The translations under genes were made by a program, and so were the position numbers. Below, in pieces: positions 6,001 through 44,345 of a stretch of 64,000 bases of DNA. The notes beneath the pieces were generated by a model, which searched no databases, was not told the DNA's origin, and was given only the letters and a program-made list of their open reading frames with translations. The DNA comes from Nanobdellota archaeon. Lineage in GTDB: Archaea; Nanobdellota; Nanobdellia; Woesearchaeales; UBA10107. Position 1 is the first letter of the stretch. Each line of letters starts with the position of its first letter. Where the stretch lies: NCBI GenBank assembly GCA_042571125.1, contig JBHPFU010000002.1, forward strand, positions 109,878 through 173,877, read 5' to 3'.

Positions 6001-7880
6001 ACACAGTAGGATCATGGTGGGGAGCAGCTAAAGTCAAAGAACGTGAATTAGCTAAAATCTTAAAAGCAAAAGCAAGACGTACTGGACGCGTTATTGAGAA
6101 AGATGCAGAAAAAATAATTGAAAAAGAACACGAATTTGCTTCTGATATAAGGAACAAAGTTAAGGGAGAGATAAAAGTAATTATAGGCATCTACAATAAA
6201 GATAAGGCTAAAGCAGTTAAAGCAGCACATGATCTAAAAATTTCCACCAGAAGAAAAGCAAGACACGCAGGAAGAGAGGTTTCTGGATTTGTTGAATCTA
6301 TTAAAGATAAATTCATTACAGAGGAGCATGAACTTGCTACAAAAACAAGAAAAACAATCGGGCACATGGGCTTTGCTCTTGAAAGAGCAGAGGAAAAGAT
6401 CTATGAAAGAGTCGCAGAAAATGTATTGGGCGTAATGCACTCACTAGTTCTTGCTTCCAGGAGAGCAGGACACAAACTTGAAGTTGCAAAACTAAGAGAA
6501 GAAGAATTTGTAAAGAACACAAGACATGAGATAAGCGGTGAAATCAAGCATATCAAAAGCATCTTAAGAAAAGGCGTAACAGAAGCAGAAAATGAATGGG
6601 AGCTTACGAAAAAGAGGGAGCATGAATTTGTTCTAGCTTCAAGAAGATTCATCAAAGGACAGCTAAAGCATGCTGCGTCTGCAATAGAAAAAGGAAAAGA
6701 TTCTGCTAATCAAAGAAGAAAAAAGATCATAGGAGATCTTAAGAATCAATTTATGATAACAGGAGAAGCAATAAGAGATAGAGAACATGATGTTGTCAAA
6801 AGGATCAGAGCTGAAGTAAGGCACGATAAGCATGAATTGCAGAAGAGAAAAGATGCTATAGCAAATAGAGCTCATGAAGTTGCTAAAGGAATCAGATATT
6901 CAGAACATGAACTAGTTAATAATTTAAAAGCTAAAGGAAGAGGAATAAAGCATCAATTCCTAAAAACAGGAGAAGCAATAAGAGAAACAGAGCATGAAAT
7001 TGCTAAGAGAACAAGAGCTGAAATAAGACACGAGAAGCACGAGTTACATAAGAGTAAGGATGCGATATCTAGTAGGGCTCATGAAATCGTTCAAGGAATA
7101 AAAAATAGGAAGCATGAAATTGCTGAAGGAGTTAGAGCTGAAATAAGACATGAGCAACATAAGTTACAAGAAAGAAGGGACGCAGTAAAAGATAGAGCTC
7201 ATGAAGTTGCTGAAGGAATAAGAGATGAACGGCATGAAATTGCTAAGGGAATCAAAGCAGAGATAAGACATGAGAAGCATGAATTAGAGAAGAAAAAGAA
7301 TGCCGTAAAAGATAGAGTTAATGCGGTCATCAAAAGAATAAAAGATAGGAAGCATGAAATTGCTGAAGGAGTTGGAGCTGAAATAGGACATGAGCAACAT
7401 AAGTTACAAGAAAGAAGGGACGCAGTAAAAGATAGAGCTCATGAAATCGTTCAAGGAGTAAAAGATGAACGGCATGAAATTGCTAAAGGTATCAAAGAAG
7501 AGATAAGACATGAGAAGCATGAACTGCAGAAGAGAAAAGATGCTATAGCGGGCAGGGCTCATGAAATCGTTCAAGGAGTAAAATATGAACAACATGAACT
7601 TGCCAAGAGAACAAGAGCTGAAATAAGGCATGAGAAGCATGAATTAGAAAAGAGAAAGAATGCAATACAAGACAATATACAAAATGTCAAGAGCGTAGCT
7701 AAAAAAGACACAGAGCTTGTTAAAGCGTCAGGTGCTGCAGCTAAAGAAAGCGCAAAGTTATTCGGAAGTGTAATATCAACTATTGCTTCAGATATATCCG
7801 GAATATTCACTAAGAAAACAAGAACTAAAAATCAAAAAGAATATCTTTTGAAAAAGTTAAAAGGAGCGTATAAGATATGA
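1..7880 (+). CDS. Giant surface protein, 5'-partial at the window edge (more than 2630 aa). It has a sequon-rich extracellular region with repeated roughly 95-aa modules and FN3-like modules, a Cys-rich stalk, one transmembrane helix near nt 5695-5756, and a roughly 650-aa His/Glu/Lys/Arg-rich repetitive tail.
   Basis: The reading frame is open back to nt 3 and the upstream residues match the internal repeat motif FTVQDTTKP. There are very many NxS/T sequons. The module VSTIEPTNVNEDV..CNLFIDGTLNGSM..PGSYQFLANCTD occurs about 5 times. A hydrophobic segment IITWSLLFLVLATLITYGAI is present. The tail repeats RAHEIVQGVKDERHEIAKGIKEEIRHEKHEL about 16 times. Confidence 0.85.
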   Translation, partial: YTIYANDTLGNQVNQSSNFTVQDTTKPVISFVAPTTSAGAHNQNEILANATSDSVDLDTITINLFNSTSNLINSTSLAASNLLVNFSNLAEGSYYLNATANDTAGNLNYTETRNIILDNTYPSITFENPTPSSGTVQNISSLLINVSASDTNFANITTYLYNETTQISKATVSNTVQFSNFVGLPNGIYYFNATAYDDAGNVNYTETRNVTINRSINAPPYWSNLNEMPGDPADYVPDKTYYFNITWNDDEGVDSVWIEFDGVNYTSEVYNISNTYVFNRTGLSVGVHNYTWYANDTNKNLTSANETYTLNALPSYSSNGSVVDEQGTVQNASYKIYNSTGHLVYSSDMYYTFTFEGTQKYDLLVTAHYDDYIRQYELKGIFNNTNNTNPIQARFNNITNHHVVNPTTLNFDELTIELRPATTNGIFFKCSGTYNLTTSICSGTWEPWLNVKSIDYENYTFTPGDPALSEANGTFFEDWETGSFATNNWTNDGCWAIVNDAANAYSGDYYAACTVSGTYTLYVNVSTAGYENINISFWYQSDGYYVTSFAADYWNGTTWRNLFTDAPVDNIATWTNVFNTTESDADDNADLRLRFVRNGGNNRDIWLENIFVTGTEIDYISPSVSTIQPTSANEDVATNYNATVSDNVGVTACNLFIDGALNGSMDVSGTLANRSVTITTPGSYQFLANCTDAAGNYNDTSVTNVTINDVTAPTWNETPTNRLLELGAPLYYDVNASDNVAVDVYSINDNTNFTINPTNGIIQNNTGLSIGTYSLNISVNDTSNNVLSEVINVTVQDTTKPSVSTIEPTNVNEDVSTTYNATVYDLDGVTSCNLYIDGTLNGSMSITGGVLAERTVTVTTPGSYQFLANCTDATGNYNDTSTTTVTINDITAPTWDETPQNQIVGHETDFSYDVNASDNVAIDTYSVDNSNFSISGAGVITNTTLLSVGVHSLNISVNDTSNNKLSEVITVTVQDTTKPSVSTIEPTNVNEDVSTTYNATVYDLDGVTTCNLFIDGTLNGSMSITGGVLAERTLTVTTPGSYQFLANCTDATGNYNDTSTTTVTINDITAPTWDETPQNQIAEYGTDFSYDVNASDNVAIDTYSVDNSNFSISGAGVITNTTLLSVGVHSLNISVNDTSNNKLSEVITVTVNDTIAPVISSVTTGTITNETGQILWSTNENANSTVDYGLTTALGSSTGSGTLVTAHDLTILSLTNNTLYYYNVTSCDVYGYCSIAGPYNFTTISNIPDTSAPIIANVNHSGVTNDSAIINWTTDDTSNSTVYYGETIALGSSTSSGTLVTTHSITLTGLTNVTLYYYNVSSCNQYGNCSTDGYYNFTTEQSPDVLSPSVSTIQPTSADEDTSTTYNATLSDVEGVTSCNLFIDGTLNGSMTISGGVLAERTLTLTTPGSYQFLANCSDAAGNYNDTSTTTVTINDITTPSLVVSSPVDGNGYTVNNISIYYTVLDNVGVDSCWYTNTTGQIVNLVGCANTSINVTDGDWNITVYANDTSNNINSSQISFLVDTANPVVNFVYPTPGDGTGVSATTITVNVTAANGPASIDSCKLTFNNTDYLMTKIGTGSAVSCNFTLSGLSEGFYVYNVTANDTLNNIGYSANRNVTIDITTPEVSTIEPVNVDEDVTTNYNATVSDNLGITSCNLFIDGTLNGSMTVAGGLAERTLNVTTPGSYQFLANCTDIAGNYNDTSTTTVTINDITAPVMSSISESSITTSSAHITWTIDELANSTVEYGLTSGLGSIESSPTLTTSHDLTLTNLTNGTVYYYNVTSCDADGNCDTLGLYNFTTANPTPPSTGGGGSHERICNENWNCTEWNECSVNGLRTRACTELSGCGTYLYRPIMFEYCEPEEIPSGEIVPTVPEEEISEEVPVVEVPAPRPIKKIITWSLLFLVLATLITYGAIRRQAIYAGTEAVIEELKGLGRLYGAGRKKRKEEEVVKVVQRRDIFKEGIKSRAQKTKEFVIHTEQSAVKILRDYLRGIEHAAYTVGSWWGAAKVKERELAKILKAKARRTGRVIEKDAEKIIEKEHEFASDIRNKVKGEIKVIIGIYNKDKAKAVKAAHDLKISTRRKARHAGREVSGFVESIKDKFITEEHELATKTRKTIGHMGFALERAEEKIYERVAENVLGVMHSLVLASRRAGHKLEVAKLREEEFVKNTRHEISGEIKHIKSILRKGVTEAENEWELTKKREHEFVLASRRFIKGQLKHAASAIEKGKDSANQRRKKIIGDLKNQFMITGEAIRDREHDVVKRIRAEVRHDKHELQKRKDAIANRAHEVAKGIRYSEHELVNNLKAKGRGIKHQFLKTGEAIRETEHEIAKRTRAEIRHEKHELHKSKDAISSRAHEIVQGIKNRKHEIAEGVRAEIRHEQHKLQERRDAVKDRAHEVAEGIRDERHEIAKGIKAEIRHEKHELEKKKNAVKDRVNAVIKRIKDRKHEIAEGVGAEIGHEQHKLQERRDAVKDRAHEIVQGVKDERHEIAKGIKEEIRHEKHELQKRKDAIAGRAHEIVQGVKYEQHELAKRTRAEIRHEKHELEKRKNAIQDNIQNVKSVAKKDTELVKASGAAAKESAKLFGSVISTIASDISGIFTKKTRTKNQKEYLLKKLKGAYKI
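2386..3455. repeat. Two near-identical tandem DNA repeats of about 535 bp inside the giant gene, each encoding a roughly 180-aa repeat unit. More diverged copies start near 1861, 4040 and 4870.
   Basis: Direct comparison of 2386-2920 against 2918-3455 shows long identical runs, for example gttcaggatactacaaagccatcagt...ccgacttgggatga. Confidence 0.8.
6770..7680. repeat. Tandem repeats of about 111 bp (37 aa) encoding the His/Glu-rich tail of the giant protein.
   Basis: An almost identical roughly 95-nt block (aagcatgaaattgctgaaggagtt..gctgaaata..acatgagcaacataagttacaagaaagaagggacgcagtaaaagatagagctcatgaa) occurs at about 7115-7210 and again at about 7355-7450. Related copies occur throughout. 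Confidence 0.75.
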
Positions 7881-22525: not shown

Positions 22526-23239
22526 ATGACACTATATTTGATAGGAATTGGACTAAATGATGAAAAAGACATTACTTTGAAAGGTCTTGAGATAGTCAAA
22601 AAATGCTCAAAAGTTTTTCTAGAAAGCTATACTTCTATACTTCAGATTGATATATCCAAATTAGAAGAATTATACGGCAAAAAGGTGATTTTAGCAGACA
22701 GAGAGCTTGTCGAGAAAAACTCGGATGAAATACTTTCTGGAGAAGATGTTGCCTTTTTAGTTATTGGTGATGCTCTATCCGCAACAACTCATGTTGATCT
22801 TATGGAAAGAGCTAAGGAAAAAAACATTAATGTAGAAGTAATTCACAATGCTGCGGTCTTAACTGCAGTTGGTGTTACAGGTTTACAGCTCTATAAGTTT
22901 GGAAAAACAACTTCGATTCCATTCCATGATGCAGTAACTCCTTGCAGAATAATAAAAGAGAATCAAAGCATTGGTGCGCACACATTATGTTTATTGGATT
23001 TAGATCCAATCAATAATAAATTCCTAACAATAAAAGAAGGGATTGATAAATTAATAGAAGGGGGATTTAAAGAAGATACTCTCTGTGTTGGATGTGCGCG
23101 TCTTGGTTCAAAAGATTTTGTTGTTAAAACTGGAACTGCTAAAGAATTAAAAGAATTTGAATTTGGTTCTGCACCATACTGTTTAATTGTTCCAGGCGAT
23201 TTGCATTTTGTTGAAGAAGAAATAATAAAAAATTACTGA
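22526..23239 (+). CDS. dph5: Diphthine synthase (Dph5).
   Basis: MTLYLIGIGL..tetrapyrrole-methylase fold. 237 aa. TATA TTTTTAAAT at 22492-22500. Confidence 0.85.
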   Translation: MTLYLIGIGLNDEKDITLKGLEIVKKCSKVFLESYTSILQIDISKLEELYGKKVILADRELVEKNSDEILSGEDVAFLVIGDALSATTHVDLMERAKEKNINVEVIHNAAVLTAVGVTGLQLYKFGKTTSIPFHDAVTPCRIIKENQSIGAHTLCLLDLDPINNKFLTIKEGIDKLIEGGFKEDTLCVGCARLGSKDFVVKTGTAKELKEFEFGSAPYCLIVPGDLHFVEEEIIKNY

Positions 23240-23598: not shown

Positions 23599-23667
23599 CT
23601 TATATATATAGTTTTCTGCCTATTTTTAAAAACTTTTATAAATCAACTTAATCTTAATTTTTCATAT

Positions 23668-23740
23668 AGCCCCGTGGTGTAGTGGCCAATCATCTAGGAT
23701 TTTGGGTCCTGGGACCGCGGTTCAAATCCGCGCGGGGCTA
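23668..23740 (+). tRNA. tRNA-Gln (UUG).
   Basis: Acceptor AGCCCCG/CGGGGCT, anticodon stem TAGGA/TCCTG with loop TTTTGGG, T-arm CGCGG-TTCAAAT-CCGCG. TATA TTTTATAAAT lies about 28 bp upstream. Confidence 0.8.
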
Positions 23741-23777
23741 CTATTTTAAATATCAGTTCTTTCTTAGAAGCCTACGC

Positions 23778-23894
23778 AGCCCCGTGGTGTAGTGGCCAAT
23801 CATAACCGGTTCTGGACCTGTTGACCGCGGTTCAAATATTTGCGCCTGGAGCGACAATGCTCTGAACGTCAGTGAGAAAGTCCGCGCGGGGCTA
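23778..23894 (+). tRNA. tRNA-Gln (CUG) with a roughly 44-nt intron at a non-canonical position in the T-arm (about 23838-23881).
   Basis: The 5' 60 nt are nearly identical to the upstream tRNA-Gln except for anticodon loop TTCTGGA. The T-loop TTCAAAT is followed by an insert, then the 3' T-stem and acceptor strand CCGCGCGGGGCTA. Confidence 0.7.
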
Positions 23895-23937
23895 TTTTTC
23901 AGTTAAATTTATAATTTCTGTATATTTAACAGGCAAT

Positions 23938-24555
23938 ATGAAAGAGGTGTTTAAGAAAGAGAATTATCCTAAGCTTTTGCTTTACATATTCTTAATCTAC
24001 TGGATAATAATGGGGATCTCTCCCCATTATCGTGGAGCGTGGATTAGTGAGAATCTTTTAACAGTATTCTTTGTCGGACTTTTAATCTTAACATATAAAA
24101 AGTTTAGATTCTCTAACTTAAGTTACACTTTATTTTTCATATTTTTGGTATTGCATGTTATAGGAAGTTATTATTCTTATACAGAAATGCCTTTGTTTAA
24201 TTTAATCAAAGACTGGATGAATCTTAGCAGGAATCATTATGATCGCGTAATACATTTCTTATTCGGGGTTATGTTTTTCGTTCCTGTCTATGAATTTTTA
24301 TCTAAGAAATTCAAGATAAAGGATTTCTGGGGATACTTGCTAACATTTTTAGTGATTACCGCTGCAAAAGGCAGTTATGAGATTATAGAGTATTTAACTA
24401 TCTTTGTTGTTAACCAGGAATTGCTTGTTACAAATTTTCTAGGAATGCAAGGCGACAAATGGGACTCGCAAAAAGATTTAATTTTGGGTATGCTCGGCTC
24501 AGGGTTTGTTTGGCTAACAATATGGATAAAAACTCGTTTTAAGAAGCGTAATTAA
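23938..24555 (+). CDS. Integral membrane protein (YjdF/DUF2238-like).
   Basis: Multiple transmembrane helices. The track ORF start at 23872 overlaps the tRNA, so ATG 23938 is preferred, with a TATA about 25 bp upstream. Confidence 0.55.
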   Translation: MKEVFKKENYPKLLLYIFLIYWIIMGISPHYRGAWISENLLTVFFVGLLILTYKKFRFSNLSYTLFFIFLVLHVIGSYYSYTEMPLFNLIKDWMNLSRNHYDRVIHFLFGVMFFVPVYEFLSKKFKIKDFWGYLLTFLVITAAKGSYEIIEYLTIFVVNQELLVTNFLGMQGDKWDSQKDLILGMLGSGFVWLTIWIKTRFKKRN

Positions 24556-24919
24556 GAGCTAATCTGCTTGGTTTTGTTGGTTCTCGCATAGGTATTACAA
24601 TAATATCAGATTTTGGATGATTAACTCCGTAGTTCATTCTGATAAATGAATAGAACTTACTAAGTTCTTTAAGACTAAATCCGGAATAGTGTTTTTGATA
24701 TCTCCCAAACGCAGCAGAGTATCTTGGATGTTTTTGATTTGATTCCATAACAATAGCTAGGTCAGAAAGAAGCCCTTCTAATCTTGGTTTCAGCCTGTGT
24801 TTAAGGCTATTTTTAAGGGTATCTGTGATTGTTTTGAACTCATCATTATCCTTTAAGCTATAGAAAAATTGATGGCTTTCATAAAGCTCAAACAAACTAT
24901 CTGGTGTTTTTTCTGCCAT
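24539..24919 (-). CDS. Hypothetical protein (126 aa), divergent from the primase operon.
   Basis: ORF only. Confidence 0.4.
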   Translation of the reverse strand: MAEKTPDSLFELYESHQFFYSLKDNDEFKTITDTLKNSLKHRLKPRLEGLLSDLAIVMESNQKHPRYSAAFGRYQKHYSGFSLKELSKFYSFIRMNYGVNHPKSDIIVIPMREPTKPSRLALNYAS

Positions 24920-24987
24920 TTATACTGCCCCAACTATAGTTTGGGTCATAACAATCTATATAAAGTTTTATCTACTCCAGAATAGGT

Positions 24988-26805
24988 ATGGGGTGGCAGG
25001 ATTCTTTATCTACAGAGACGATTGCAAATATTAGAAGTCTGAATATCTCGTGGATTATTGACAATTTTGTTCCGGGCCATAAGATGGTTCAAACAGAAGG
25101 AGCATATACTGGCCCATGTCCGATTCATAAAGGAAAAAAGACAGAGTTTGCAGCAAGAAATAATTACTTTACTTGTTTTAAATGTGGAGAAAAAGGGGAT
25201 GGCATTGATTTTGTGCAGGCACTAAAAAGCATAGACGGACTTAATGCTGCAAAACTGATAAGCAAAGCTGCAGATATTCCTTTTGAAACAGCAACAAGTG
25301 AACATGACGCATTAACAAGAGAATTAATGTATCAGATACATGAAGATTCTGCAGAGTACTATCGCAAAAATCTTTCTGTAAGTTCAAAAGATAAAAAAGA
25401 TGCATTGGACTATCTTCTTTCAAGAGTTAGTGAACAATCAATAAGAGAATGGGGTCTTGGATTTGCACCAAGAATGGGCTTATCTAGTTTTCTTATAGAA
25501 AAAGGGCACGATGCTGATTTAGTATCTCGATTAGGGCTTAGAGTAAAATCAGAAGATAGAGGAAACTGGTATGATTTCTTCAGAAACAGAATTATGTTTC
25601 CTATTAAAAATGAAAGAGGCAAAGTTGTTGGGTTTGCAGGGAGAGATATTGAAAAAGATCCAAGAATAAAATATATGAACAGCAGAGAGAGCGAAATCTA
25701 TAGAAAATCAGAGTGTCTTTTTGGAATTGACAAGGCAATAAGAGACATACGTATAAAAAAACAAGTAATCGTTATGGAAGGGTATATGGATGTTATAGCA
25801 GCGCATGAAAATGGAATTGAAAACTGCGTGGCTGTTGCCGGAACTGCTCTAAATTATGGATTAATAAGAACATTATCAAGATATGCAAGAGACATAACTC
25901 TTTGTTTTGATCCAGATGCTGCAGGATGGACTGCAACAGAAAGGATTGGTAAGACTGCATTATCAGAAAAGGTAGCAATCAACATTGTGGATCTTGGGCA
26001 TGGTGACCCCGACGAATTTCTAAAAGAATATGGCAAGAAGAAATTCTTATCTGCAATAAAAAACGGTGTGAATCCTATTGAATTTATTTTAGAACGTAAA
26101 GGATTAAAGAAAATAAAAGGGATTGATAACCGATGTTTGGCAGTACGGGATCTTTATCCAGTAATCGATTCTACAACTGATCCTGCACAGAAATCTGCCT
26201 GGCTGGAATACATTGCTAAAGAGCTAAAGATAAATTCTAGGGCGCTTAACAAAAGCTATAACTTGCATGTAAGAGAACTCGCAGGTTATCAGAACGGAAG
26301 ACCTATCGAACAATATTTTCTTGGATTTCTTACATCTAACACAACACATAGAATGCGTGCGAAAGAAAAATTCATACGAGAGAATTTTTCAAGACCGGAA
26401 TATGGCCTGTATTTTGAATTTCTCTGCTTTGATGAAGAAGCAAAAGATGTTGTTTATAATCCTGACCTGCAGATGGACGAGAATTCTTTGTTTACCAAAG
26501 TTCAATTGAGCGACTTGCTTGATAAATTTAAAAGTTATTGTAAAGAAAGAAAGATAATTCTTCGTCAAACTCAGCTGGGAAATCTTGAAGGTATGCTTTT
26601 GAGTTCTACAAACGAAATTTCTGACTTTGTAAGGCAAATGGAGATGCAGGTTCTGGCAGATAAACTGGAATATAAAAAAGGTCTTATAAAAAAACTTGAG
26701 AGAGAAAGTGCAGATCACTCTCTTATTCCTAACCTTGTGGTTGAGTACAATAAATTACATAGTAAATACGAATCACTAAAACATTATATTAATCAGGGTG
26801 TTTAA
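24988..26805 (+). CDS. Bacterial-type DnaG-like primase with an N-terminal CHC2 zinc finger, a TOPRIM domain and an unknown C-terminal domain.
   Basis: Zinc-finger motif CPIHKGKKTEFAARNNYFTCFKCGEKGDGIDFV. TOPRIM Glu in VIVMEGYMDVIAAH and DxD in LCFDPDAAG. TATA TCTATATAAAG about 28 bp upstream, consistent with a leaderless transcript. Confidence 0.8.
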   Translation: MGWQDSLSTETIANIRSLNISWIIDNFVPGHKMVQTEGAYTGPCPIHKGKKTEFAARNNYFTCFKCGEKGDGIDFVQALKSIDGLNAAKLISKAADIPFETATSEHDALTRELMYQIHEDSAEYYRKNLSVSSKDKKDALDYLLSRVSEQSIREWGLGFAPRMGLSSFLIEKGHDADLVSRLGLRVKSEDRGNWYDFFRNRIMFPIKNERGKVVGFAGRDIEKDPRIKYMNSRESEIYRKSECLFGIDKAIRDIRIKKQVIVMEGYMDVIAAHENGIENCVAVAGTALNYGLIRTLSRYARDITLCFDPDAAGWTATERIGKTALSEKVAINIVDLGHGDPDEFLKEYGKKKFLSAIKNGVNPIEFILERKGLKKIKGIDNRCLAVRDLYPVIDSTTDPAQKSAWLEYIAKELKINSRALNKSYNLHVRELAGYQNGRPIEQYFLGFLTSNTTHRMRAKEKFIRENFSRPEYGLYFEFLCFDEEAKDVVYNPDLQMDENSLFTKVQLSDLLDKFKSYCKERKIILRQTQLGNLEGMLLSSTNEISDFVRQMEMQVLADKLEYKKGLIKKLERESADHSLIPNLVVEYNKLHSKYESLKHYINQGV

Positions 26806-28852
26806 GATTATCAGAAAGTTAACAAAAGAGGAAAAACGAGAAATAGCGGGTAAGACGAGAAGGGCGGGTTATTCTTCTAAAAAAAATATTGCGATTGGTG
26901 AGCTATACCGACATAACAGAGGATTATACAATTATTTAAAAAGAAGGGGGAGGTCTATTGGAACTAATAATATTTCTCATTTATTGACTGAGTCTGGATT
27001 TGATGCGGGGCAAACAAGAGACATAAGAGCAGAATTAATTAAAGAACTTAAGAACGAGTTCCCTTTGTCAAGAGTACGAGAAATTGTTAAAAGAGGACCT
27101 CAGACTCCGAAAAAGAGCGGATTGATTTCACTTAAAAAAGTAATCTGCAGGTATAAGTCTAAAAGAGTGAAATGTAAAGATTTGCCACCTACACGAAAAA
27201 TAATTGATTCTTTATATGCACAACATCCTCACTTATCGTTTTATTTGACAGGCCAAGTAAAAGCAGGAGATTTTACGCCCACTGAGATGGGTTCAACATT
27301 AAGAGATGTGTACTTCACAGGTGGAGATATTTCCTGCACAGGATTGCAACAACGTGAATTTGGTCTTTATTGGAGATGGTTAACTGCTCATGCAAAAATG
27401 CAAAGCGAAAATCTATTCGGTCAAGATAAAAGAAATCTAACAAAGATTGTTGAAGAGTTATCCAACATACGTGCTGCTGACTTTTCAATAAAACATGCAA
27501 AAGAAACAAAAACTCTTGGAAACATAAGCGAGAATCTTACAAGAACTATTCTTTGGTCTACACTTGTTTTAGATCAGTTCGGAAAAAGGCAAACTAACGC
27601 ATTCAAAAGATGCTACCCCTTGCCTTTTTCCGATATTTTTCCAGTATACGGAAGAGAACAAGGATTAAAGTGCGAACACGCACCAGCACAGGAAGGAGAT
27701 AAAGAACTTTATGCAGATGCGGTTATTAGATCACTTGATGAGTTATGTTATGTAGAAGTTAAGAATTTTACAACTGCTCACGGTAATGTTTTATCAGAAT
27801 TAAAGGGGAAAATATGTTCAGAAAGAGTTTTGTTTTGGAATAAAGGAGACAGGGATGTAACAAGAAAGACTTTAGTTGTACATTCAACAGATAAAGTCTA
27901 CAGAGACGTTGTTGATTCTTTAAAAGGAGAAGATCTTTCTTTTGTTTCGCCTTCTGAATTCAGAAAAAGTCTTGAAATAACATTACGAGATTTGGAAAGC
28001 AGCGGGTATACAACACCGCAGGTTTATTCTGCTGAACAAATTCTAAAAGCGTATGATATCATTGCTGAACGTCCGCATATTTTAATCCGACCGAGTCATG
28101 AACAGGAATTTAAATTTATCAATGACGTTACAAAAGATCTGCTTACAAAACTTCAAAGAGGATACCGAGCAAATGGTTACAAACCAATAACTGTCTTCTC
28201 AAGAAAAGGAAGATTAATAGAAAATAGTGAAGGGACATTCCAATTATTTAAACTGCCCCTACAAAATTTGCCTGATTCAAATGTCAAGGCACAGGTTATG
28301 AAAAGAATGGATGATCTTCATCCTGGAAAATTATTCATGGACATTGAAACCATGGGTTTTCATGGAAAACAGATCTTCCTTATCGGAACAATGTACAATT
28401 CAGGAAGAGATATAACTGCAGAGCTTGCTTTTGCAAGGAATCCATTAGAAGAACGGGCAGTGCTAAAACACTTCTGTGCTCAGGCACAGAATTATGATGA
28501 AGTAATAACCTATAACGGGAAAAGCTTTGATTATCCTGCAATTAAAAAAAGGCTTGTTTCAAACAGGATGAGCGATACCCTCCCAGATAAACACACTGAC
28601 TATTATCGCGTATTAATGAAAACCGGAATATATAAAAAGACAAACTCTGCAAGGCTTTCGGAACTATATAAGTTATTTGGGGAAGAAAGGGAAGATATCA
28701 GCAGCGCAGAAGTCCCTCAGAGATATCTGGACTGGATGAAGCACGGGTCAGCAGAGGCAATAAATGATGAGATTGAACATAACGTGCTCGATCTGCTCAC
28801 AATGGCAGCAGTTTACTTATCACCAAATCTTTTGAAAGGCAGGAAGATATAA
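26798..28852 (+). CDS. 684-aa protein with a novel N-terminal roughly 480 aa and a C-terminal RNase H-fold 3'-5' exonuclease domain of the YprB/COG3359 (RNase_H_2) type.
   Basis: GTG start overlapping the primase stop by 8 nt. C-terminal motifs MDIETMGF, ITYNGKSFDYPAIKKRL and EIEHNVLDL. No Walker A motif. Confidence 0.65.
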   Translation: MFKIIRKLTKEEKREIAGKTRRAGYSSKKNIAIGELYRHNRGLYNYLKRRGRSIGTNNISHLLTESGFDAGQTRDIRAELIKELKNEFPLSRVREIVKRGPQTPKKSGLISLKKVICRYKSKRVKCKDLPPTRKIIDSLYAQHPHLSFYLTGQVKAGDFTPTEMGSTLRDVYFTGGDISCTGLQQREFGLYWRWLTAHAKMQSENLFGQDKRNLTKIVEELSNIRAADFSIKHAKETKTLGNISENLTRTILWSTLVLDQFGKRQTNAFKRCYPLPFSDIFPVYGREQGLKCEHAPAQEGDKELYADAVIRSLDELCYVEVKNFTTAHGNVLSELKGKICSERVLFWNKGDRDVTRKTLVVHSTDKVYRDVVDSLKGEDLSFVSPSEFRKSLEITLRDLESSGYTTPQVYSAEQILKAYDIIAERPHILIRPSHEQEFKFINDVTKDLLTKLQRGYRANGYKPITVFSRKGRLIENSEGTFQLFKLPLQNLPDSNVKAQVMKRMDDLHPGKLFMDIETMGFHGKQIFLIGTMYNSGRDITAELAFARNPLEERAVLKHFCAQAQNYDEVITYNGKSFDYPAIKKRLVSNRMSDTLPDKHTDYYRVLMKTGIYKKTNSARLSELYKLFGEEREDISSAEVPQRYLDWMKHGSAEAINDEIEHNVLDLLTMAAVYLSPNLLKGRKI

Positions 28853-29898
28853 TGGGCAAAAGACTAAGAAATCGTAGAAAGAAGAAGCATCATGCAAAAG
28901 CTAATGATAAATATTGGGGGATTTCAGAACCTGCTTTTGGACAAACTCTAGAAAGTATCCCCGGCATGAAATACTTTGTAGATTTATTTGAGAAAACACC
29001 ATTTGAAAAGCTTCCTAGTGCAGAGCAAATGGCAAACATAATCGCTCCAGCAGGTCCTCTCTCATATTCTGACCTGGAAGAGATGGCTAGATTTTTTGGA
29101 TACAGAATAGAATATTCTGAAAAGGACCATAACAGAAAAGTAATTAATCCTGGATACGCGTGCATATTCTCTTCATCAGATGAAAAGTACAGAGTTATTT
29201 ACTTGAATCCGCGTACAGATCCAGATAGGCAAAGACAAATATTAGGTCATGAGCTTGGACATCCTTTACTTTATACGTATTGTATGGCAAAAGATTTGAA
29301 AGCTTTTAGCTATGGTAAAGATTGCTATGATGATGAAGGTGATAAAACTTGTTGGCCAGCAGAACATTATCTGGATAAGTTAAGTCATAATCTTATTTTC
29401 CCGGATTCTATTCTGTCCGGATTAGATCTTACAGAAATTGATGCTAAAGGAGCGATGGAGATTGCTAAGGAATTTGGAGTTCCGATAGAAACTGTTGTTA
29501 CTCGTTTACACAGATTTACTAATAAAAACGGATTGGTAATCCTTGATTATTATGGGCATGTTGGTGGTTCTAGAGATAAGTATCATGTAAGTTATCAAGG
29601 ACTGCCTGTAAGCCACAGAGTTGATTTGAACCAACGTTCAACAAAACAGGGATTCAAAAGATGGAGAGAAGGATTGAATGGGGAAAGAACAAAGGTTGAA
29701 GCAGAAGAAATACTAGACATAACAAAAAGCAATGGACCATTTAGAATAAGAACTCCTTGTAATTATCTTTCATTTCATTCTACGCACAGACAGTATAAAT
29801 CCAAAACATGGTATAGGGGGGATATTAAAAATCCAAGAAGAATTCTTGTAAGCTTTCCTGTTAACGGAGGTAAAGCCGTTCCATTATCACTGGATTAA
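28852..29898 (+). CDS. ImmA/IrrE-family (COG2856, M78-like) zinc metallopeptidase with a roughly 120-aa unknown C-terminal extension.
   Basis: TAATG overlap with the upstream gene. HEXXH context RQRQILGHELGHPLLYTY, plus the downstream helical segment MEIAKEFGVPIETVVTRLHRF typical of ImmA. Confidence 0.7.
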   Translation: MGKRLRNRRKKKHHAKANDKYWGISEPAFGQTLESIPGMKYFVDLFEKTPFEKLPSAEQMANIIAPAGPLSYSDLEEMARFFGYRIEYSEKDHNRKVINPGYACIFSSSDEKYRVIYLNPRTDPDRQRQILGHELGHPLLYTYCMAKDLKAFSYGKDCYDDEGDKTCWPAEHYLDKLSHNLIFPDSILSGLDLTEIDAKGAMEIAKEFGVPIETVVTRLHRFTNKNGLVILDYYGHVGGSRDKYHVSYQGLPVSHRVDLNQRSTKQGFKRWREGLNGERTKVEAEEILDITKSNGPFRIRTPCNYLSFHSTHRQYKSKTWYRGDIKNPRRILVSFPVNGGKAVPLSLD

Positions 29899-30373
29899 TC
29901 GGTTTATCTGTTTCGTCTGTTTCTAGGTTTCCAATCTTTCTTAAAACATCTTCTCCTTTTATCACTTGACCAAAAACAGAATGTTTTCCATTCAGCCAAG
30001 ACGTTGGAACTAGGGTAATAAAGAATTGAGAACCGCCTGTATTCGGACCTCGGTTAGCCATAGAAAGAATTCCCATTTTATTATGTGTTAATTCTTCATG
30101 AAATTCGTCAGGAATTGTGTAACCAGGACCGCCAGTTCCATCTCCCACAGGATCTCCTCCCTGGATCATAAAGTTTCTTATAACTCTATGGAATGTTAAG
30201 TTATCGTAATATCCTTGTTTTGTTAGTGTTATGAAATTCTCTGTTGTTACCGGAGCTCTTTCCTGAAATAACTCTACTTCCATTGTTCCGTGATTTGTTT
30301 CAATAACCACAATAGTGTTTTTAGAACAACCTGCTAAAAGAAGTATCGCGAGTATTAAGATTAATCTTTTCAT
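29861..30373 (-). CDS. Cyclophilin-type peptidyl-prolyl cis-trans isomerase, secreted or lipoprotein.
   Basis: FHRVIRNFMIQGGDP. N-terminal LLAGCSKN lipobox. Confidence 0.85.
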   Translation of the reverse strand: MKRLILILAILLLAGCSKNTIVVIETNHGTMEVELFQERAPVTTENFITLTKQGYYDNLTFHRVIRNFMIQGGDPVGDGTGGPGYTIPDEFHEELTHNKMGILSMANRGPNTGGSQFFITLVPTSWLNGKHSVFGQVIKGEDVLRKIGNLETDETDKPINPVIMERLYLR

Positions 30374-30672
30374 TTTTTAATCTTGCCAAGAAGAAACATG
30401 AATATTATGAACAGACCGATTATTATTAGAAGTAGGCTTACATTTCTTAAGTAAGTGTATTGATAAATAACAAAGTTAACAAAACCTATCACAGCCAAGA
30501 ATAAACCTACAACCCAGTTGTTCTTTTCAAAATATTTCATGAATGCTGTATCCTTGAAAACAATCCCAACCCACATCCCAATGACTAAACTTAGTAGAAC
30601 TTGAATGAAAATAAGGTTTGGTTGATACATAAGATATCTTTTATATTGATAATATATAAATCTTTTCCTCAA
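30370..30672 (-). CDS. Small membrane protein (100 aa).
   Basis: Hydrophobic helices. Overlaps the cyclophilin start. Confidence 0.4.
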   Translation of the reverse strand: MRKRFIYYQYKRYLMYQPNLIFIQVLLSLVIGMWVGIVFKDTAFMKYFEKNNWVVGLFLAVIGFVNFVIYQYTYLRNVSLLLIIIGLFIIFMFLLGKIKK

Positions 30673-30685
30673 AAGCTTTATAAAT
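30671..30685 (+). promoter_or_regulatory. Archaeal BRE/TATA promoter (AAAAGC-TTTATAAA) for the nuclease gene at 30707.
   Basis: Consensus BRE plus an 8-bp TATA, 23-30 bp upstream of the ATG. Confidence 0.6.
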
Positions 30686-30706
30686 CGCTGATTTATTTTT
30701 TACTAT

Positions 30707-32068
30707 ATGATAAACGGTACTACTGTTTTAAATTATGTTAGATGTCCTAGACTCGTTTGGAACAAATTCTATGGCCCTTCTGAAGAAAAAACTGCGGTTC
30801 ATGAGTTTATGCAGAAAAAGATGGGGGAAGGTCTTGTTCTTGAAAAAGGTTACATCAAAAAATTGCCTCATGAATCTTTCAGTTTTACGAATTTGGAAGA
30901 CGGGTTTAAGAAAACTCTTGAGCTTATGAAAAAAGGAGCAAAAAGAATATATCATCCTGTTCTTATGTATGATGATTTTGTTGGAATTCCTGATCTAATT
31001 GAAAAAGTAAAGGGAAAATCAAGATTGGGGGAGTACTACTATGTTGCGGGAGATGTTAAAAGCACAATAAGACCAAAAGAAGAACAGGTTATGCAGGTAG
31101 TATTTTATAATCATCTGATAAGCAAAGTACAGAGATATCTTCCTCACCTTGGTTTTCTTGTTATGCGAGATGAAAACAGAGTTGATGTAAACATAACTGA
31201 TAATATTTCTAAGCTTAATAAAGACATTAAAATGATAAGAGAGATTTGCAACGGGATGGTTATTTCTCCAACAATTAATAGTCACTGTACATTCTGTCCA
31301 TGGAAAGACTATTGTTTTAATATTGCTCTTAATGATGGAGACATATCAATGATTAAGGGTCTTGGTTCTTCCGCTAAAAAGATATTAAACGAAATCGGCG
31401 CTCATAAAATAGAAGATGTTGCAAAACTTGACCCAGAAAAAACCCATTTTAAAGGATTTACTCCGGCAACAGTTCAGAAATGGAAACTTCAAGCAGAATC
31501 TTTAAGAGATGATAAGGTAATAAAGATAAAAAAGCATAGTTTCTCTTCTCGGTTGTATGAAGTTTACCTTGACTTAGAATCCCAGGATAATACTCAAGTA
31601 GTTTATCTTATTGGTTTATTAGTTAACGGCAAAGTAAAACAGTTCACTGCTCTAAAGCCAGAAGATGAGAAGAAAACTCTCCTGGAATTTGTTAAATATG
31701 TTATTTCACTAAAAGATTTTGTTATTTATCACTACGGAACATTTGAAAAGACTATGTTCAGAACTTTATTTAAGAAATATTCTGTAAATAAAGCAGAGGG
31801 CGATAAGATAATGTCAAATATGATTGATCTGCTTCCGATAATCAATTCTTCTGTTGTTCTTCCTTTGCACAGCTATTCCCTGAAAAGGATTGCTCGGTAC
31901 CTTGGCTTTAAATGGACAGATAAGAAAGCTGATGCTGCCGAATCTATGTACTGGTATGATCTATGGCTAAAAGATGGGGACCTTAAATGGTTAGAGTTAA
32001 GTACAAAGTATAATGAAGATGACTGTAAGGCTACTAAAATAATTAAAGAATGGCTTGAGAAACTTTAA
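30707..32068 (+). CDS. Cas4/RecB-family PD-(D/E)xK nuclease with 4 Cys, fused to a helix-hairpin-helix and a YprB-type RNase H-fold exonuclease domain (TM0106/COG2251-like).
   Basis: N-terminal Cys YVRCPRLVW, D..IPDLIE..GDVKS nuclease motifs, C-terminal Cys triad HCTFCPWKDYC. The C-terminal half has YLDLESQD, YHYGTFEK and HSYSLKRIARYLGF. Promoter AAAAGCTTTATAAAT 23 bp upstream. Confidence 0.65.
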   Translation: MINGTTVLNYVRCPRLVWNKFYGPSEEKTAVHEFMQKKMGEGLVLEKGYIKKLPHESFSFTNLEDGFKKTLELMKKGAKRIYHPVLMYDDFVGIPDLIEKVKGKSRLGEYYYVAGDVKSTIRPKEEQVMQVVFYNHLISKVQRYLPHLGFLVMRDENRVDVNITDNISKLNKDIKMIREICNGMVISPTINSHCTFCPWKDYCFNIALNDGDISMIKGLGSSAKKILNEIGAHKIEDVAKLDPEKTHFKGFTPATVQKWKLQAESLRDDKVIKIKKHSFSSRLYEVYLDLESQDNTQVVYLIGLLVNGKVKQFTALKPEDEKKTLLEFVKYVISLKDFVIYHYGTFEKTMFRTLFKKYSVNKAEGDKIMSNMIDLLPIINSSVVLPLHSYSLKRIARYLGFKWTDKKADAAESMYWYDLWLKDGDLKWLELSTKYNEDDCKATKIIKEWLEKL

Positions 32069-32253: not shown

Positions 32254-32390
32254 TATTAAGTATGAAACTTATATAAATTTTCCTACCAAAACCTTTATAA
32301 ACCACCTACATACTCAATATATCATCAAGAGATGATCTGGTTACGGCTTGGTCATGCTTAAGATGAGCTATTCTCTTGATTATAAATAAA

Positions 32391-32846
32391 ATGGCACGAA
32401 AATATTCCAGAGACAAAGGACAAGCAGGTTCAACAAAACCTAGCAAACCTTCAAAACCTACTTGGATTAGATATAAGGCGGAAGAAGTTGAAGCAATAAT
32501 TGCTAAGCTAGCTAAAGAAGGAAAATCTGCTTCAAAAATAGGAATTCACTTAAGAGATAATTTCGGAATCCCTGATGTAAAAACCATAACAGAAAAGAAA
32601 ATATCTAAAATTCTAAAAGAAAAGAATATCTCTCCGAAATTACCTGAAGACTTATCATCTTTACTTAAAAGAGTTATCCAAATACAAAAACATATTGAAA
32701 GAAATCACAAAGACCAAACTGCTAAAAGAGGTTTGAACTTAACAGAATCAAAAGTCAAAGCATTGCTTAAATACTACAAAGCTAAGAAAGTTCTTCCAGC
32801 AAGCTGGAAATATGATTCAAAGAACGTAGCATTGTTACTAAGATAG
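32391..32846 (+). CDS. rps15: Ribosomal protein S15 (uS15, S13e family).
   Basis: MARKYSRDKG..IHLRDNFGIPDVK matches the archaeal/eukaryotic S15 family. The track start at 32376 is probably an upstream extension. Confidence 0.85.
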   Translation: MARKYSRDKGQAGSTKPSKPSKPTWIRYKAEEVEAIIAKLAKEGKSASKIGIHLRDNFGIPDVKTITEKKISKILKEKNISPKLPEDLSSLLKRVIQIQKHIERNHKDQTAKRGLNLTESKVKALLKYYKAKKVLPASWKYDSKNVALLLR

Positions 32847-34259: not shown

Positions 34260-36095
34260 ATGGCTAAAATCAAAACAAACGTCAAAAGCAATGCAGAAAA
34301 GATTGTTATAGATACTTCTGTAATAATTGAAGGTCTTGCTTCTATAAAAATTGAATCAGGAGATATTAAACCAAAAGAAATACTAATCCATGAAGCGGTT
34401 CTATCAGAATTAGAGAATCAGGCAAATTCTGGAAAAGAGATAGGATATATCGGCCTAGCAGAAGTAAAGAAGTTAAGAGCGATATCTAAAAAATATAAAT
34501 TCAAAATAACTTACACAGGAAAAAGACCTGAAGAATTTCAGATTAAAAGAGCAAAATCAGGAGAGATCGATGCTTTAATTCGTGCATTGGCATTCCAAGA
34601 AAAAGCTACACTATTAACCGCAGATAAAGTTCAGGCATTAGTTGCAGAAGCAAAAGGTGTTGATACAGTCTTAATTGAATTTGAATTCCCAGAGAGAAAA
34701 TTCGTTCTTGAATCTTTCTTTGACAAAACAACTATGTCTGTTCACATAAAAGAGAATACAAAAACAGTAGCTAAAAAAGGCATGCCTGGGGATTGGGAGT
34801 TCGCGGTTGTTGGAAAAAAAGAATCAACAAAAGATGAGATAGAAGACATGGTAAAAGATATTGTTGAAGAAGCTACAAGAAGACCTGACGGATTTATTGA
34901 AATAGAAAGAAGAGGTTCAACAATTATTCAATTGTCAAATTACAGAATCGTAATCACAAAACCTCCGTTTGCAGACGGCTGGGAAATCACGGCAGTAAGA
35001 CCCGTTAAAAGACTAAGCTTAGATGACTACAAGCTATCAGATAAATTAAAAGAAAGAATTGCTGAACAGGCAGACGGAATATTAATCGCAGGATCTCCAG
35101 GAATGGGTAAAACTACTTTTGCTCAAGGACTTGCAGAGTATTACTCAACAAAAGATAATATTGTAAAGACTATTGAAGCTCCAAGAGATTTGATATTGCC
35201 TGATGAAGTTACACAGTACTCAATAAGCCATGGTTCTCAGCAAGAAATTCACGATATTTTACTTTTAACAAGACCTGATTATACATTATTTGATGAGATG
35301 AGGAACACAGATGATTTTAGACTATTCTCAGACTTAAGATTGGCAGGAGTAGGTATGGTTGGGGTTATACACGCAACAAATCCTATTGATGCCATTCAAA
35401 GATTTATAGGAAGGATTGAACTTGGAGTTATTCCTCATGTTATTGATACTGTTGTTTTCATAAAAGATGGAGGAGTCAATAAAGTCCTAAATGTTCAGAT
35501 GCAGGTCAAGGTTCCTTCTGGAATGTCAGAAGCAGATCTTGCAAGACCTATCGTTATTGTGAGTGATTTTGAAACAGGCAAAGCAGAATTTGAGATATAC
35601 AGCTATGGAGAACAGACAGTTGTTATTCCTGTAGAGGCTGAAAAAGGAAGTCCTGCTAAAGAGCTTGCAAAGATAACAATTGCTAATGAACTTCAAAGAT
35701 ATTCTGACTTTGTTGAGGTGGACATGGTTTCTGAATACAAATGTATTGTTTATGTCCCAGATAAAGACATTGCAGGCATTATTGGTAGAGAAGGAAAAAG
35801 GATTCAAGAAATTGAAAGTAATTTGGGAATATCTATTGATGTAAGAGAACTAAAAGAACTTCCTAAAAACGGAACAAAGATTGATTTCTCACCAGAATTT
35901 TCAAATAAATTCTTGATCATAAGAGTAGATCCTAAATATTCAGAGCAAAATGTTGATGTATACATAAAAGATGACTACTTTGCTTCTATGAATGCAGGAA
36001 AAAACGGAGAGATAAGAGTCAAGAAAACAAATAAATTAGGAAAGGCATTGGCTAATTCCTTAAAGTATAATGAGAAGATAGAAATCTTTATTTAA
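34260..36095 (+). CDS. PINA-type ATPase (PIN domain, P-loop ATPase and C-terminal KH domain).
   Basis: PIN acidic N-terminus IVIDTSVII. Walker A GSPGMGKTTFA. KH motif IAGIIGREGKRIQEIE. Confidence 0.8.
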   Translation: MAKIKTNVKSNAEKIVIDTSVIIEGLASIKIESGDIKPKEILIHEAVLSELENQANSGKEIGYIGLAEVKKLRAISKKYKFKITYTGKRPEEFQIKRAKSGEIDALIRALAFQEKATLLTADKVQALVAEAKGVDTVLIEFEFPERKFVLESFFDKTTMSVHIKENTKTVAKKGMPGDWEFAVVGKKESTKDEIEDMVKDIVEEATRRPDGFIEIERRGSTIIQLSNYRIVITKPPFADGWEITAVRPVKRLSLDDYKLSDKLKERIAEQADGILIAGSPGMGKTTFAQGLAEYYSTKDNIVKTIEAPRDLILPDEVTQYSISHGSQQEIHDILLLTRPDYTLFDEMRNTDDFRLFSDLRLAGVGMVGVIHATNPIDAIQRFIGRIELGVIPHVIDTVVFIKDGGVNKVLNVQMQVKVPSGMSEADLARPIVIVSDFETGKAEFEIYSYGEQTVVIPVEAEKGSPAKELAKITIANELQRYSDFVEVDMVSEYKCIVYVPDKDIAGIIGREGKRIQEIESNLGISIDVRELKELPKNGTKIDFSPEFSNKFLIIRVDPKYSEQNVDVYIKDDYFASMNAGKNGEIRVKKTNKLGKALANSLKYNEKIEIFI

Positions 36096-40796: not shown

Positions 40797-41366
40797 ATGA
40801 GAACATTAACTATAGACGAATTCAAGCTTCACAAGGGAAATGTCGCTAAATATGTTGAAGATGGCGCTATTTTCATATATCCTACAGATACTATTTACGG
40901 AATCGGCTGCAATGCAGTAGACGAACATGCAGTTGGCGTTCTAAGAAGCATAAAGTACAGATATAAGAGACCATTCTCAGTAATTGCACCAAACAAAGAC
41001 TGGATTAGAAACAATTGCGACGTAACTGAAGAAGGAGAAGAATGGCTTGAAAAATTACCTGGGCCATACACATTAATTCTTAAACTAAAAGATAAGACTT
41101 GTGTTGCACCCGGTGTTTGCCAAGGTGTTGATACCTTGGGTGTGAGAATACCTGATCACTGGATAAGCGAGTTAGTCTCAAACATTGGAGTGCCGGTTGT
41201 AACAACGTCTGTTAACCTCACTGGAGAAGATTTTGCAAATTCTGTTGAATCAATAAGCCCGAAAATAAAAGGCAAGGTTGATTTTGCTATTGATGAAGGC
41301 GAAAAAACAGGCAGACCTTCAACTCTGGTTCATTTAGATAAAGGCGGCAGACTAGAGGAAAGATGA
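40797..41366 (+). CDS. Sua5/YrdC-family t6A threonylcarbamoyl-AMP synthase (YrdC domain only).
   Basis: YPTDTIYGIGCNA..VIAPNKDW.. is a YrdC-like fold. TATA TTTTTAAA 22 bp upstream. Confidence 0.75.
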   Translation: MRTLTIDEFKLHKGNVAKYVEDGAIFIYPTDTIYGIGCNAVDEHAVGVLRSIKYRYKRPFSVIAPNKDWIRNNCDVTEEGEEWLEKLPGPYTLILKLKDKTCVAPGVCQGVDTLGVRIPDHWISELVSNIGVPVVTTSVNLTGEDFANSVESISPKIKGKVDFAIDEGEKTGRPSTLVHLDKGGRLEER

Positions 41367-43929: not shown

Positions 43930-44345
43930 ATATCCACCACGACTTGGATTGTAACTCCCGCATCTTCTTCTTTAATAAACATTTCGCTGTACGTAACTGC
44001 TTTAATATCGGTATTAATTGGGTAGCTAGTAATATTATCAGCGCCAACAACAACTGCAGTTAGTTTATATTTTTTATTTTTTTCAATTTTGATAGAATCC
44101 ACAGCATGCAATAAGAAAGGAACTGAATCCAACAATATTAATAATTCTGACAGAAAATCATAAAGCAGAGCCTCTTTATTTTCAGATTCAACAACTATTT
44201 TTTTTGTTATAGAAGTCATAACATCCTCTGTATCTGTAATCACATTAAACATAGCAAGAGCAGCATTAGAAAATGCTTCTTCGAGTGTTTTTCCAAATGC
44301 CTGAAATTTTGCATCCGCGGTGTGCTCTAAAAATTTGAATTTCAT
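43926..44345 (-). CDS. Archease (RtcB activator).
   Basis: MKFKFLEHTADAKF matches the archease N-terminus. Co-oriented and overlapping with rtcB. Confidence 0.85.
   Translation of the reverse strand: MKFKFLEHTADAKFQAFGKTLEEAFSNAALAMFNVITDTEDVMTSITKKIVVESENKEALLYDFLSELLILLDSVPFLLHAVDSIKIEKNKKYKLTAVVVGADNITSYPINTDIKAVTYSEMFIKEEDAGVTIQVVVDI

Follow-up and report, generated by a model that had tools for sequence, protein, structure and literature searches.

The second of two tandem tRNA-Gln genes on a stretch of archaeal DNA of 64,000 nt (assembly GCA_042571125.1, contig JBHPFU010000002.1, positions 109,878 to 173,877 of the forward strand; termed the window in the following, with positions counted from its first nucleotide) is interrupted within the T-loop by 44 additional nucleotides. 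With an estimated probability of about 75 %, this gene (23778-23894) encodes a spliced and functional tRNA-Gln(CUG) which carries a protein-spliced intron at tRNA position 59/60. We infer that the precursor would be cleaved by the archaeal splicing endonuclease EndA, that its exons would be ligated and that the resulting tRNA-Gln(CUG) would be used in translation. The strongest support for an intron comes from sequence comparison with related tRNA-Gln genes, 32 distinct T-arm-plus-intron sequences of which share one common layout. The host is a DPANN archaeon belonging to the Woesearchaeota: homologs of the diphthine synthase encoded next to the gene pair (22526-23239) are overwhelmingly woesearchaeotal, and the G+C content amounts to ~35 %.

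The two tandem tRNA-Gln genes

Direct reading of the sequence between 23600 and 23900 revealed two tRNA-Gln genes on the forward strand which are separated by a spacer of 37 nt. The genes, their parts and their putative signals are as follows.

23635-23642, forward strand: TATA box TTTATAAA of tRNA-Gln(UUG), ending 26 nt upstream of the tRNA and preceded by the purine-rich AAAAAC, which resembles a TFB recognition element (BRE)
23668-23740, forward strand: tRNA-Gln(UUG), 73 nt, uninterrupted, anticodon TTG
23744-23752, forward strand: TATA box TTTTAAATA of tRNA-Gln(CUG), inside the 37-nt spacer and ending 26 nt upstream of 23778
23778-23894, forward strand: tRNA-Gln(CUG), 117 nt including the 44-nt insert, anticodon CTG at 23812-23814
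23778-23836, forward strand: 5' exon of tRNA-Gln(CUG), tRNA positions 1-59
23805-23809 and 23817-23821, forward strand: anticodon stem of tRNA-Gln(CUG), with the mismatch C23807 x U23819
23837-23880, forward strand: predicted intron UAUUUGCGCCUGGAGCGACAAUGCUCUGAACGUCAGUGAGAAAG, 44 nt, tRNA position 59/60
23881-23894, forward strand: 3' exon of tRNA-Gln(CUG), comprising U60, the 3' strand of the T-stem (23882-23886), the 3' strand of the acceptor stem (23887-23893) and the discriminator A (23894)
23895-23899, forward strand: run of five T directly 3' of tRNA-Gln(CUG), by direct reading

The uninterrupted gene for tRNA-Gln(UUG) was recognized by ARAGORN as well as by Rfam model RF00005 (50.3 bits, E=8e-8). 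It possesses an A1-U72 pair and the discriminator base A73, does not encode the terminal CCA, and retains three of the four arms (acceptor, anticodon and T arm) in its minimum free energy (MFE) fold, which lacks the canonical D stem. Both genes start with AGCCCCG and end with CGGGGCU-A, and hence share A1-U72 and A73 next to an anticodon of the type YUG (TTG and CTG, respectively). These three properties are identity features of archaeal tRNA-Gln, the substrate of GluRS and GatDE.

Sequence identity between the two genes extends over nt 1-26, the 5' strand of the T-stem with the T-loop (GACCGCGGTTCAAAT; CGCGG TTCAAAT) and the last 14 nt (TCCGCGCGGGGCTA; T CCGCG CGGGGCT A), whereas all differences fall into linear nt 27-46 (anticodon arm plus beginning of the variable loop). 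The 13-mer CCGCGCGGGGCTA occurs in exactly two copies in the window, compared to 0.02 expected by chance. The 44 extra nucleotides of tRNA-Gln(CUG) are located between TTCAAA and TCCGCG, i.e. inside the T-loop. The initial annotation, made from the sequence alone, had proposed two tandem isoacceptors (UUG and CUG) 37 nt apart with identical acceptor, D and T arms, the second interrupted by some 44 nt in the T-arm at about position 59/60. Sequence comparison, the repeat search and ARAGORN calls for the first and for the spliced second gene bear out all of these proposals.

Removal of 23837-23880 in silico yields a product of 73 nt which ARAGORN calls as tRNA-Gln(ctg) and whose T-arm and acceptor are the same as those of the first gene. 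The intact locus, in contrast, was called by neither ARAGORN nor Rfam, even at relaxed thresholds or with the intron option of ARAGORN. An ARAGORN run with option -i combined with a scan for T-loop motifs detected no further hidden disrupted tRNAs in the window.

That each of the genes has its own TATA box 25-30 bp upstream, as previously suggested, agrees with the conservation of both boxes in related loci (designated by L numbers in the following): in alignments, TTTATAAA is unchanged across seven syntenic loci, and TTTTAAATA as well as the spacer length of 37 nt are constant in the window, L001 and L002, the three loci that possess a tandem. Oligo-T runs act as archaeal transcription terminators, and the T5 run at 23895-23899 likely represents such a transcription stop, as judged from this analogy. 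CAG accounts for 194 of the 432 glutamine codons (45 %) in the open reading frames (ORFs) of the window, compared to a G-ending share of 23-27 % among GAR and AAR codons; a CAG-specific tRNA should therefore be useful and in demand.

Predicted splice sites and proposed processing

The archaeal splicing endonuclease recognizes two 3-nt bulges which are located on opposite strands and separated by a 4-bp helix, and in both bulges its cut follows the second nucleotide. This bulge-helix-bulge (BHB) recognition rule is general background (Marck and Grosjean 2003). In the canonical 37/38 case, from which the geometry was taken, the intron pairs with nt 32-35, and 36-37-i1 and i(n-1)-i(n)-38 constitute the bulges; either bulge is thus positioned 3' of the central helix on its strand and is cut after its second nucleotide. 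Applied to the CUG gene of L001, this rule exactly locates the perfect canonical 37/38 intron of that gene. Next to the strict motif, relaxed forms (hBH and HBh') exist, and their occurrence in D-, T- and acceptor arms is textbook knowledge (PMC6379350).

Because the BHB rule selects 23837-23880, the intron was placed there rather than at 23838-23881, as originally proposed; with a U at both junctions, the two placements give the same spliced product. The elements of the predicted motif are the following.

23826-23830 (CGCGG) with 23882-23886, forward strand: outer helix h, corresponding to the T-stem; 5 bp in the MFE folds and five pairs in the consensus of homologs, two of them with compensatory changes
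23831-23834, forward strand: 5' strand of the central helix, UUCA (T-loop nt 54-57), with UUC paired to GAA at 23876-23878 and A57 opposite A23875
23875-23878, forward strand: 3' strand of the central helix, AGAA
23835-23837, forward strand: 5' splice-site bulge A58 A59|U, predicted cut 23836|23837
23879-23881, forward strand: 3' splice-site bulge AG|U, predicted cut 23880|23881; a strict 3-nt bulge between central helix and T-stem
23837-23844 with 23867-23874, forward strand: inner helix h', UAUUUGCG with CGUCAGUG; mismatch U23841 x C23870, which is G-C in homologs
23847-23864, forward strand: distal intron hairpin UGGAGC GACAAU GCUCUG, from the MFE folds

A single BHB register (Ha 23831 / Hb 23875) combined an outer helix measuring 5 bp or more with a product accepted by ARAGORN. 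It conforms to the relaxed form of the motif, with the strict AGU bulge on the 3' side between the 5-bp T-stem and the central helix, and a slip of one nucleotide at the inner helix; the MFE fold draws the 5' bulge as 23834-23836 and places U23837 in a terminal U·G pair. The top scorers of a strict BHB scan across the whole precursor were spurious, with mature lengths of 19-94 nt, and were dropped by the filter for ARAGORN-accepted products.

Two other interpretations of the insert were rejected. The catalytic cores of self-splicing group I introns (P3-P9) and group II introns (domains I-VI) comprise hundreds of nucleotides; the insert measures 44 nt, and no Rfam intron family matched 23600-23960 at E-values up to 10. 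A box C/D guide RNA inside the intron was considered on account of a CUGA motif, but 44 nt are too short and a box C is lacking, as judged by inspection only.

The proposed processing route starts with transcription of each tRNA-Gln gene from its own TATA/BRE promoter. In the precursor of tRNA-Gln(CUG), the T-stem would form normally, T-loop nt 54-56 (UUC) would pair with GAA near the 3' end of the intron, and the intron ends would pair mutually to give an inner helix of 7-8 bp. A58-A59|U and A-G|U would thereby end up in bulges, one per strand, around a short central helix, i.e. in a relaxed BHB motif. EndA, presumably encoded outside the window, would then cut after the second nucleotide of each bulge, and RtcB together with archease would ligate the exon halves and probably circularise the intron. 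Ligation would restore the 7-nt T-loop UUCAAAU, and CCA would be added post-transcriptionally.

Genes for the ligation step, reported earlier for 42.5-44.3 kb, were verified by domain matches.

42508-43929, reverse strand: RtcB, 3'-phosphate/5'-OH RNA ligase joining tRNA exon halves (PF01139, E=3e-167, full-length match)
43926-44345, reverse strand: archease, cofactor of RtcB (PF01951, E=1.2e-38)

The archease gene overlaps the start of rtcB by 4 nt, and from this arrangement the two genes look like an operon. Within 16 kb, further genes for RNA maturation accompany RtcB-archease (42508-44345), namely a gene of the Sua5/YrdC family (40797-41366) and TruD (55907-56833).

Introns in related tRNA-Gln genes

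Overall, 80 syntenic loci from Woesearchaeota genomes of GTDB were examined in which tRNA-Gln is located beside the diphthine synthase gene. Related loci share the gene order FtsZ - diphthine synthase - small ORF - tRNA-Gln, and the state of the tRNA-Gln genes varies. In L001 (75 % diphthine synthase identity), the tandem CUG gene harbours an intron of 17 nt at 37/38 with a textbook hBHBh' motif (UUCU:GGAA, bulges GG|A and AA|C, inner hairpin GAA-GAAA-UUC). The tandem CUG gene of L002 is interrupted by a D-loop intron, and in L003 the UUG gene itself carries a T-loop intron after TTCGAA, with the contig stopping inside the intron.

Four of the syntenic loci (L052, L055, L057 and L071) possess T-loop introns which agree in their layout: T-stem / UUCG:CGAA / AA|N / hairpin / A(G/C)|U. 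A metagenome scan with a pattern based on this layout retrieved 37 further tRNA-Gln genes; as GAAAGT was fixed in the pattern, independent tests are provided only by the inner helix and the fourth central-helix pair. The 32 distinct tRNA-Gln sequences of T-arm plus intron share the layout T-stem / UUCR:YGAA / bulges AA|N and AG|U / inner hairpin. Their 3' bulge reads AGU in 31 of 32 cases and ACU in the remaining one. At the fourth pair, nt 57 and its partner in the intron form G-C in 24, G·U in three and A-U in two of the 32 sequences, and a non-pair in the other three; both A-U pairs coincide with the A57 variant of the T-loop. The fourth central-helix pair thereby covaries with the G57/A57 polymorphism of the T-loop.

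A homologous intron with the invariant ends UAUU(U/G)GCGC ... GAACGUCAGUGAGAAAG was found in three distinct genes covering both isoacceptors: tRNA-Gln(CUG) of the window, tRNA-Gln(UUG) of L100, and tRNA-Gln(CUG) of L091, to which L104 is identical. Identity to the intron of the window amounts to 86 % for L100 and 73 % for L091/L104, and the near-identical intron ends span 9 + 17 nt. For the window and L100, the exon parts next to the intron reach an identity of 69 %, compared to 86 % for the intron. The introns of L091 and L100 occupy the same exact tRNA position in unrelated genomic contexts. Folded independently, T-arm plus intron of the window, L100 and L091 adopt the same architecture, and the RNAalifold consensus of the three homologs comprises 22 pairs, four of which show compensatory changes. 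The inner helix is continuous over 8 bp in L100 and L091, compared to one U x C mismatch in the window; the distal hairpin shows a compensatory G-C to A-U change in L100 and is replaced by a different hairpin in L091. The position opposite nt 57 in the central helix is always A in this subfamily, resulting in A·A in two members (the window and L100) and in G·A in the third (L091). Since a purine·A combination is present in all three members, it represents a subfamily trait rather than damage private to the copy in the window.

The same three sequences allow a different register, in which UUCA (23831-23834) would pair with UGAG (23873-23876) and leave a 5-nt loop (AAAGU) on the 3' side, giving a bulge-helix-loop substrate. 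Its four standard pairs include a fourth one that covaries within the subfamily (A57-U in L100 as well as in the window, G57·U in L091). However, an outer helix in register is missing, the standard cut would generate a product of 75 nt with a 9-nt T-loop, the 8-bp inner helix, which all three homologs form in their MFE as well as centroid folds, would be destroyed, and the remaining 29 T-loop introns use the YGAA register. Pairing with UGAG is therefore considered very improbable compared to the AGAA pairing listed above.

With respect to the origin and properties of the subfamily, the conservation of the intron above that of the surrounding exons might tentatively be attributed to spread between tRNA genes (mobility or gene conversion), to a function of the excised, probably circular RNA or to recognition of an atypical BHB geometry by the local EndA, a proposal regarded as doubtful. 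All copies found are located at the same position of the same isotype, and vertical inheritance with losses, or gene conversion between tandem paralogs, explains the subfamily as well as transposition does.

Intron sites in orthologous woesearchaeotal tRNA-Gln genes comprise several positions in the D-arm (behind nt 9 or 10, behind nt 15 and within the D-loop) in addition to 37/38 and 59/60. A gene may contain up to two introns in the syntenic set and up to three in the metagenome set; examples with two or three introns are L105 (195 nt), L122 (181 nt) and L028 (172 nt). The site of the intron differs even between loci at 70-75 % protein identity, which implies rapid gain and loss. Since orthologous genes are interrupted at D-arm sites, 37/38 or 59/60, with up to three introns per gene, intron turnover in this lineage is fast, and the endonuclease of the lineage must tolerate relaxed motifs.

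The hairpin motif GAAAUCGGAGAUUUC(C), often followed by CUGA, was observed in D-loop introns of L028, L092, L105 and L122, and the motif also occurs in anticodon-loop introns of L018, L027, L028, L078, L086 and L120. By its sequence, it looks like one intron family at different tRNA positions, which resembles intron transposition. A further peculiarity was noticed in L035, where a tRNA-Gln-like start (AGCCCCATAGTGTAGC...) is followed by unrelated sequence (4632-4714), ~35 nt upstream of a complete intron-containing tRNA-Gln; this fragment may represent a remnant or an unusually disrupted gene.

Non-canonical BHB introns of tRNAs have reportedly been described by Marck and Grosjean (2003) and by Sugahara and coworkers (2008) for Crenarchaeota/Thermoproteales and Nanoarchaeota. 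The intron of the window resembles them in being short, protein-spliced and located outside the anticodon loop at 59/60, in employing a tRNA stem as outer helix, in its predicted dependence on EndA and RtcB, and in having homologs in different tRNA genes. It differs by its host, a woesearchaeotal DPANN archaeon rather than a crenarchaeon, by a central helix of three Watson-Crick pairs plus the subfamily-conserved purine·A, and by a relaxed 5' bulge. Compared to the canonical 37/38 intron with its strict hBHBh' motif, exactly the form present in the L001 ortholog, cut rule and enzymes are alike, whereas the site in the T-loop, the T-stem as outer helix and the relaxed motif are different. Position 59/60 belongs to the established non-canonical positions of archaeal tRNA introns (PMC4090602).

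For DPANN lineages, Kaneta et al. reported a marked rise in disrupted tRNA genes, including non-canonical and multiple introns, and included a Woesearchaeota genome (PMC5829648). In the same study, an alpha4 EndA with an extra L3 loop was assigned to multiple DPANN lineages, and incomplete DPANN tRNA sets were proposed to probably hide undetected disrupted genes (PMC5829648); ARMAN-2 possesses an epsilon2 EndA (PMC3239211, PMC3488258). The gene studied here belongs to the same superphylum and was likewise missed by ARAGORN and Rfam; the tRNA gene predictions of Kaneta et al. covered one Woesearchaeota genome. A recurrent 59/60 intron in tRNA-Gln of Woesearchaeota was not found described in the literature consulted. 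Large-scale transposition of tRNA introns, with similar introns in divergent tRNAs, is known from Thermoproteales, according to a summary (PMC4090602) of Fujishima et al. 2010. Near-identical intron ends in tRNA genes with diverged exons, covering both Gln isoacceptors, are a feature in common with that system; the copies of the present subfamily, in contrast, all reside at one position of one isotype.

Thus, introns at 59/60 and the heavy disruption of DPANN tRNA genes are already published, and the known mechanism is unchanged. Added are a recurrent, tRNA-Gln-specific 59/60 intron in Woesearchaeota, an intron subfamily with purine·A, and a gene missed by standard tools; the gene adds a well-documented case to the heavily disrupted tRNA genes of this lineage, with comparative support from 32 distinct sequences. 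Since ARAGORN and Rfam miss the gene, automated annotation would here report no CAG-specific tRNA-Gln, an instance of the incomplete tRNA sets noted for DPANN genomes and an annotation pitfall for metagenome-assembled genomes of DPANN archaea. In a related case, ARAGORN calls the intron-containing tRNA-Gln(CUG) of L001 (4360-4449) as tRNA-Leu(gag).

Functional status and genomic surroundings

Several observations weigh against a functional and spliced tRNA-Gln(CUG). With respect to the splice sites, the proposal that a BHB motif can be folded at the junctions stands for the relaxed motif with its strict 3' bulge; the strict hBHBh' form, in contrast, was not obtained, as the central helix combines A·A with three Watson-Crick pairs and the 5' bulge, too, is imperfect. 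For the latter, the terminal U·G pair must open, or else G23874/A23875 stay unpaired. The core register (the T-stem and three or more of the four pairs) was also formed by 18 % of shuffled introns, a share that falls to 1.3 % if, in addition, the inner helix has to be flush and to comprise 4 bp or more, and the folding energy of the precursor is unremarkable (z = -0.7 and +0.7 for two folds). Because these percentages of shuffled introns pass, the evidence from folding the single sequence is modest, and the case rests on the comparison with relatives.

Further points against this reading concern the enzyme and the tRNA body. No EndA or tRNA_int_endo domain was detected in the 40 ORFs of the window that were scanned; EndA would have to be encoded outside the window. 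Among 20 distinct anticodon stems of uninterrupted tRNA-Gln, C23807 x U23819 stands alone as a non-pair, L001 having A-U at this position, and the MFE structure of the spliced tRNA-Gln(CUG) is not a cloverleaf. Finally, L004, which at 85 % diphthine synthase identity is the nearest relative with sequence at this site, possesses the UUG gene only, followed directly by rpS15. Other homologs of the diphthine synthase at 81-85 % identity reside on contigs that end before the site of the second gene (L005 and L007), and no homologs of the downstream DUF2238 protein above 65 % identity were found. A near-identical ortholog of tRNA-Gln(CUG) was accordingly not found among these relatives.

The anticodon-stem mismatch, a spliced RNA that does not fold into a cloverleaf (the first gene nearly does), A·A in the central helix, U x C in the inner helix where homologs have G-C, and the lone UUG gene of L004 would all fit a decaying pseudo-tRNA which once contained a functional intron, with CAG being read by wobble of tRNA-Gln(UUG). 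Such decay is nevertheless judged unlikely: the remaining arms are intact and the same as in the functional neighbour, promoter, spacer (37 nt) and putative T-run terminator show no damage either, purine·A is common to all three members of the intron subfamily and hence no private lesion, CAG use is high, and the spliced product is accepted by ARAGORN. Single mismatches in the anticodon stem are, moreover, tolerated in many real tRNAs. A spliced and functional tRNA-Gln(CUG) accordingly remains the preferred reading.

The insert could also be viewed as the scar of an att site left by a mobile element at the T-arm, or the locus as a split or permuted tRNA. Integration into T-arms of tRNA genes is known from archaea (PMC4090602). 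Just downstream, synteny with relatives is lacking at 23.9-30.7 kb, a region which encodes a bacterial/phage-type DnaG primase, nuclease/exonuclease-like proteins and an M78 peptidase; in L004, rpS15 directly follows the tRNA. Apart from the two genes themselves, however, no direct repeat of tRNA parts was detected at the far end of the region or elsewhere in the window, the downstream ORFs scanned contained no integrase, and matches to PHROG were restricted to the primase and nuclease-like proteins. Homologs of the insert are located at the exact same tRNA position in unrelated contexts (L091 and L100), its fold is conserved and predicted to be splice-competent, and both exons are contiguous and collinear, unlike those of a split or permuted tRNA. 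Both alternatives to an intron are therefore regarded as extremely improbable.

The region between the tRNA-Gln pair and rpS15 (32376-32846) extends from 23938 to 32068 and harbours genes for a DUF2238 membrane protein, an M78/IrrE-like peptidase, a cyclophilin, a primase of the bacterial/phage DnaG type with a CHC2 zinc finger (24988-26805; phrog_6444, E=1e-85) and two proteins of the RNase_H_2 superfamily, one of which is fused to a Cas4-like nuclease. Neither an att repeat nor an integrase was found within 23938-32068, which may constitute a variable or mobile region next to the tRNA gene. In L001, a Cas4-like gene is positioned ~1.4 kb after the tRNA-Gln pair.

Three further ORFs of the window deserve mention. 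A giant ORF (63-7880, 2605 aa) contains internal repeats, with near-identical 40-mers including ...GGAACATTAAATGGTTCAATG... at ~1989, 4167 and 4998, and probably encodes a large repetitive surface protein. Unrelated to the tRNA-Gln genes are a protein of 611 aa combining PIN, ATPase and KH domains (34260-36095) and a small ORF (48018-48389) with a weak antitoxin domain of the MazE/AbrB type.

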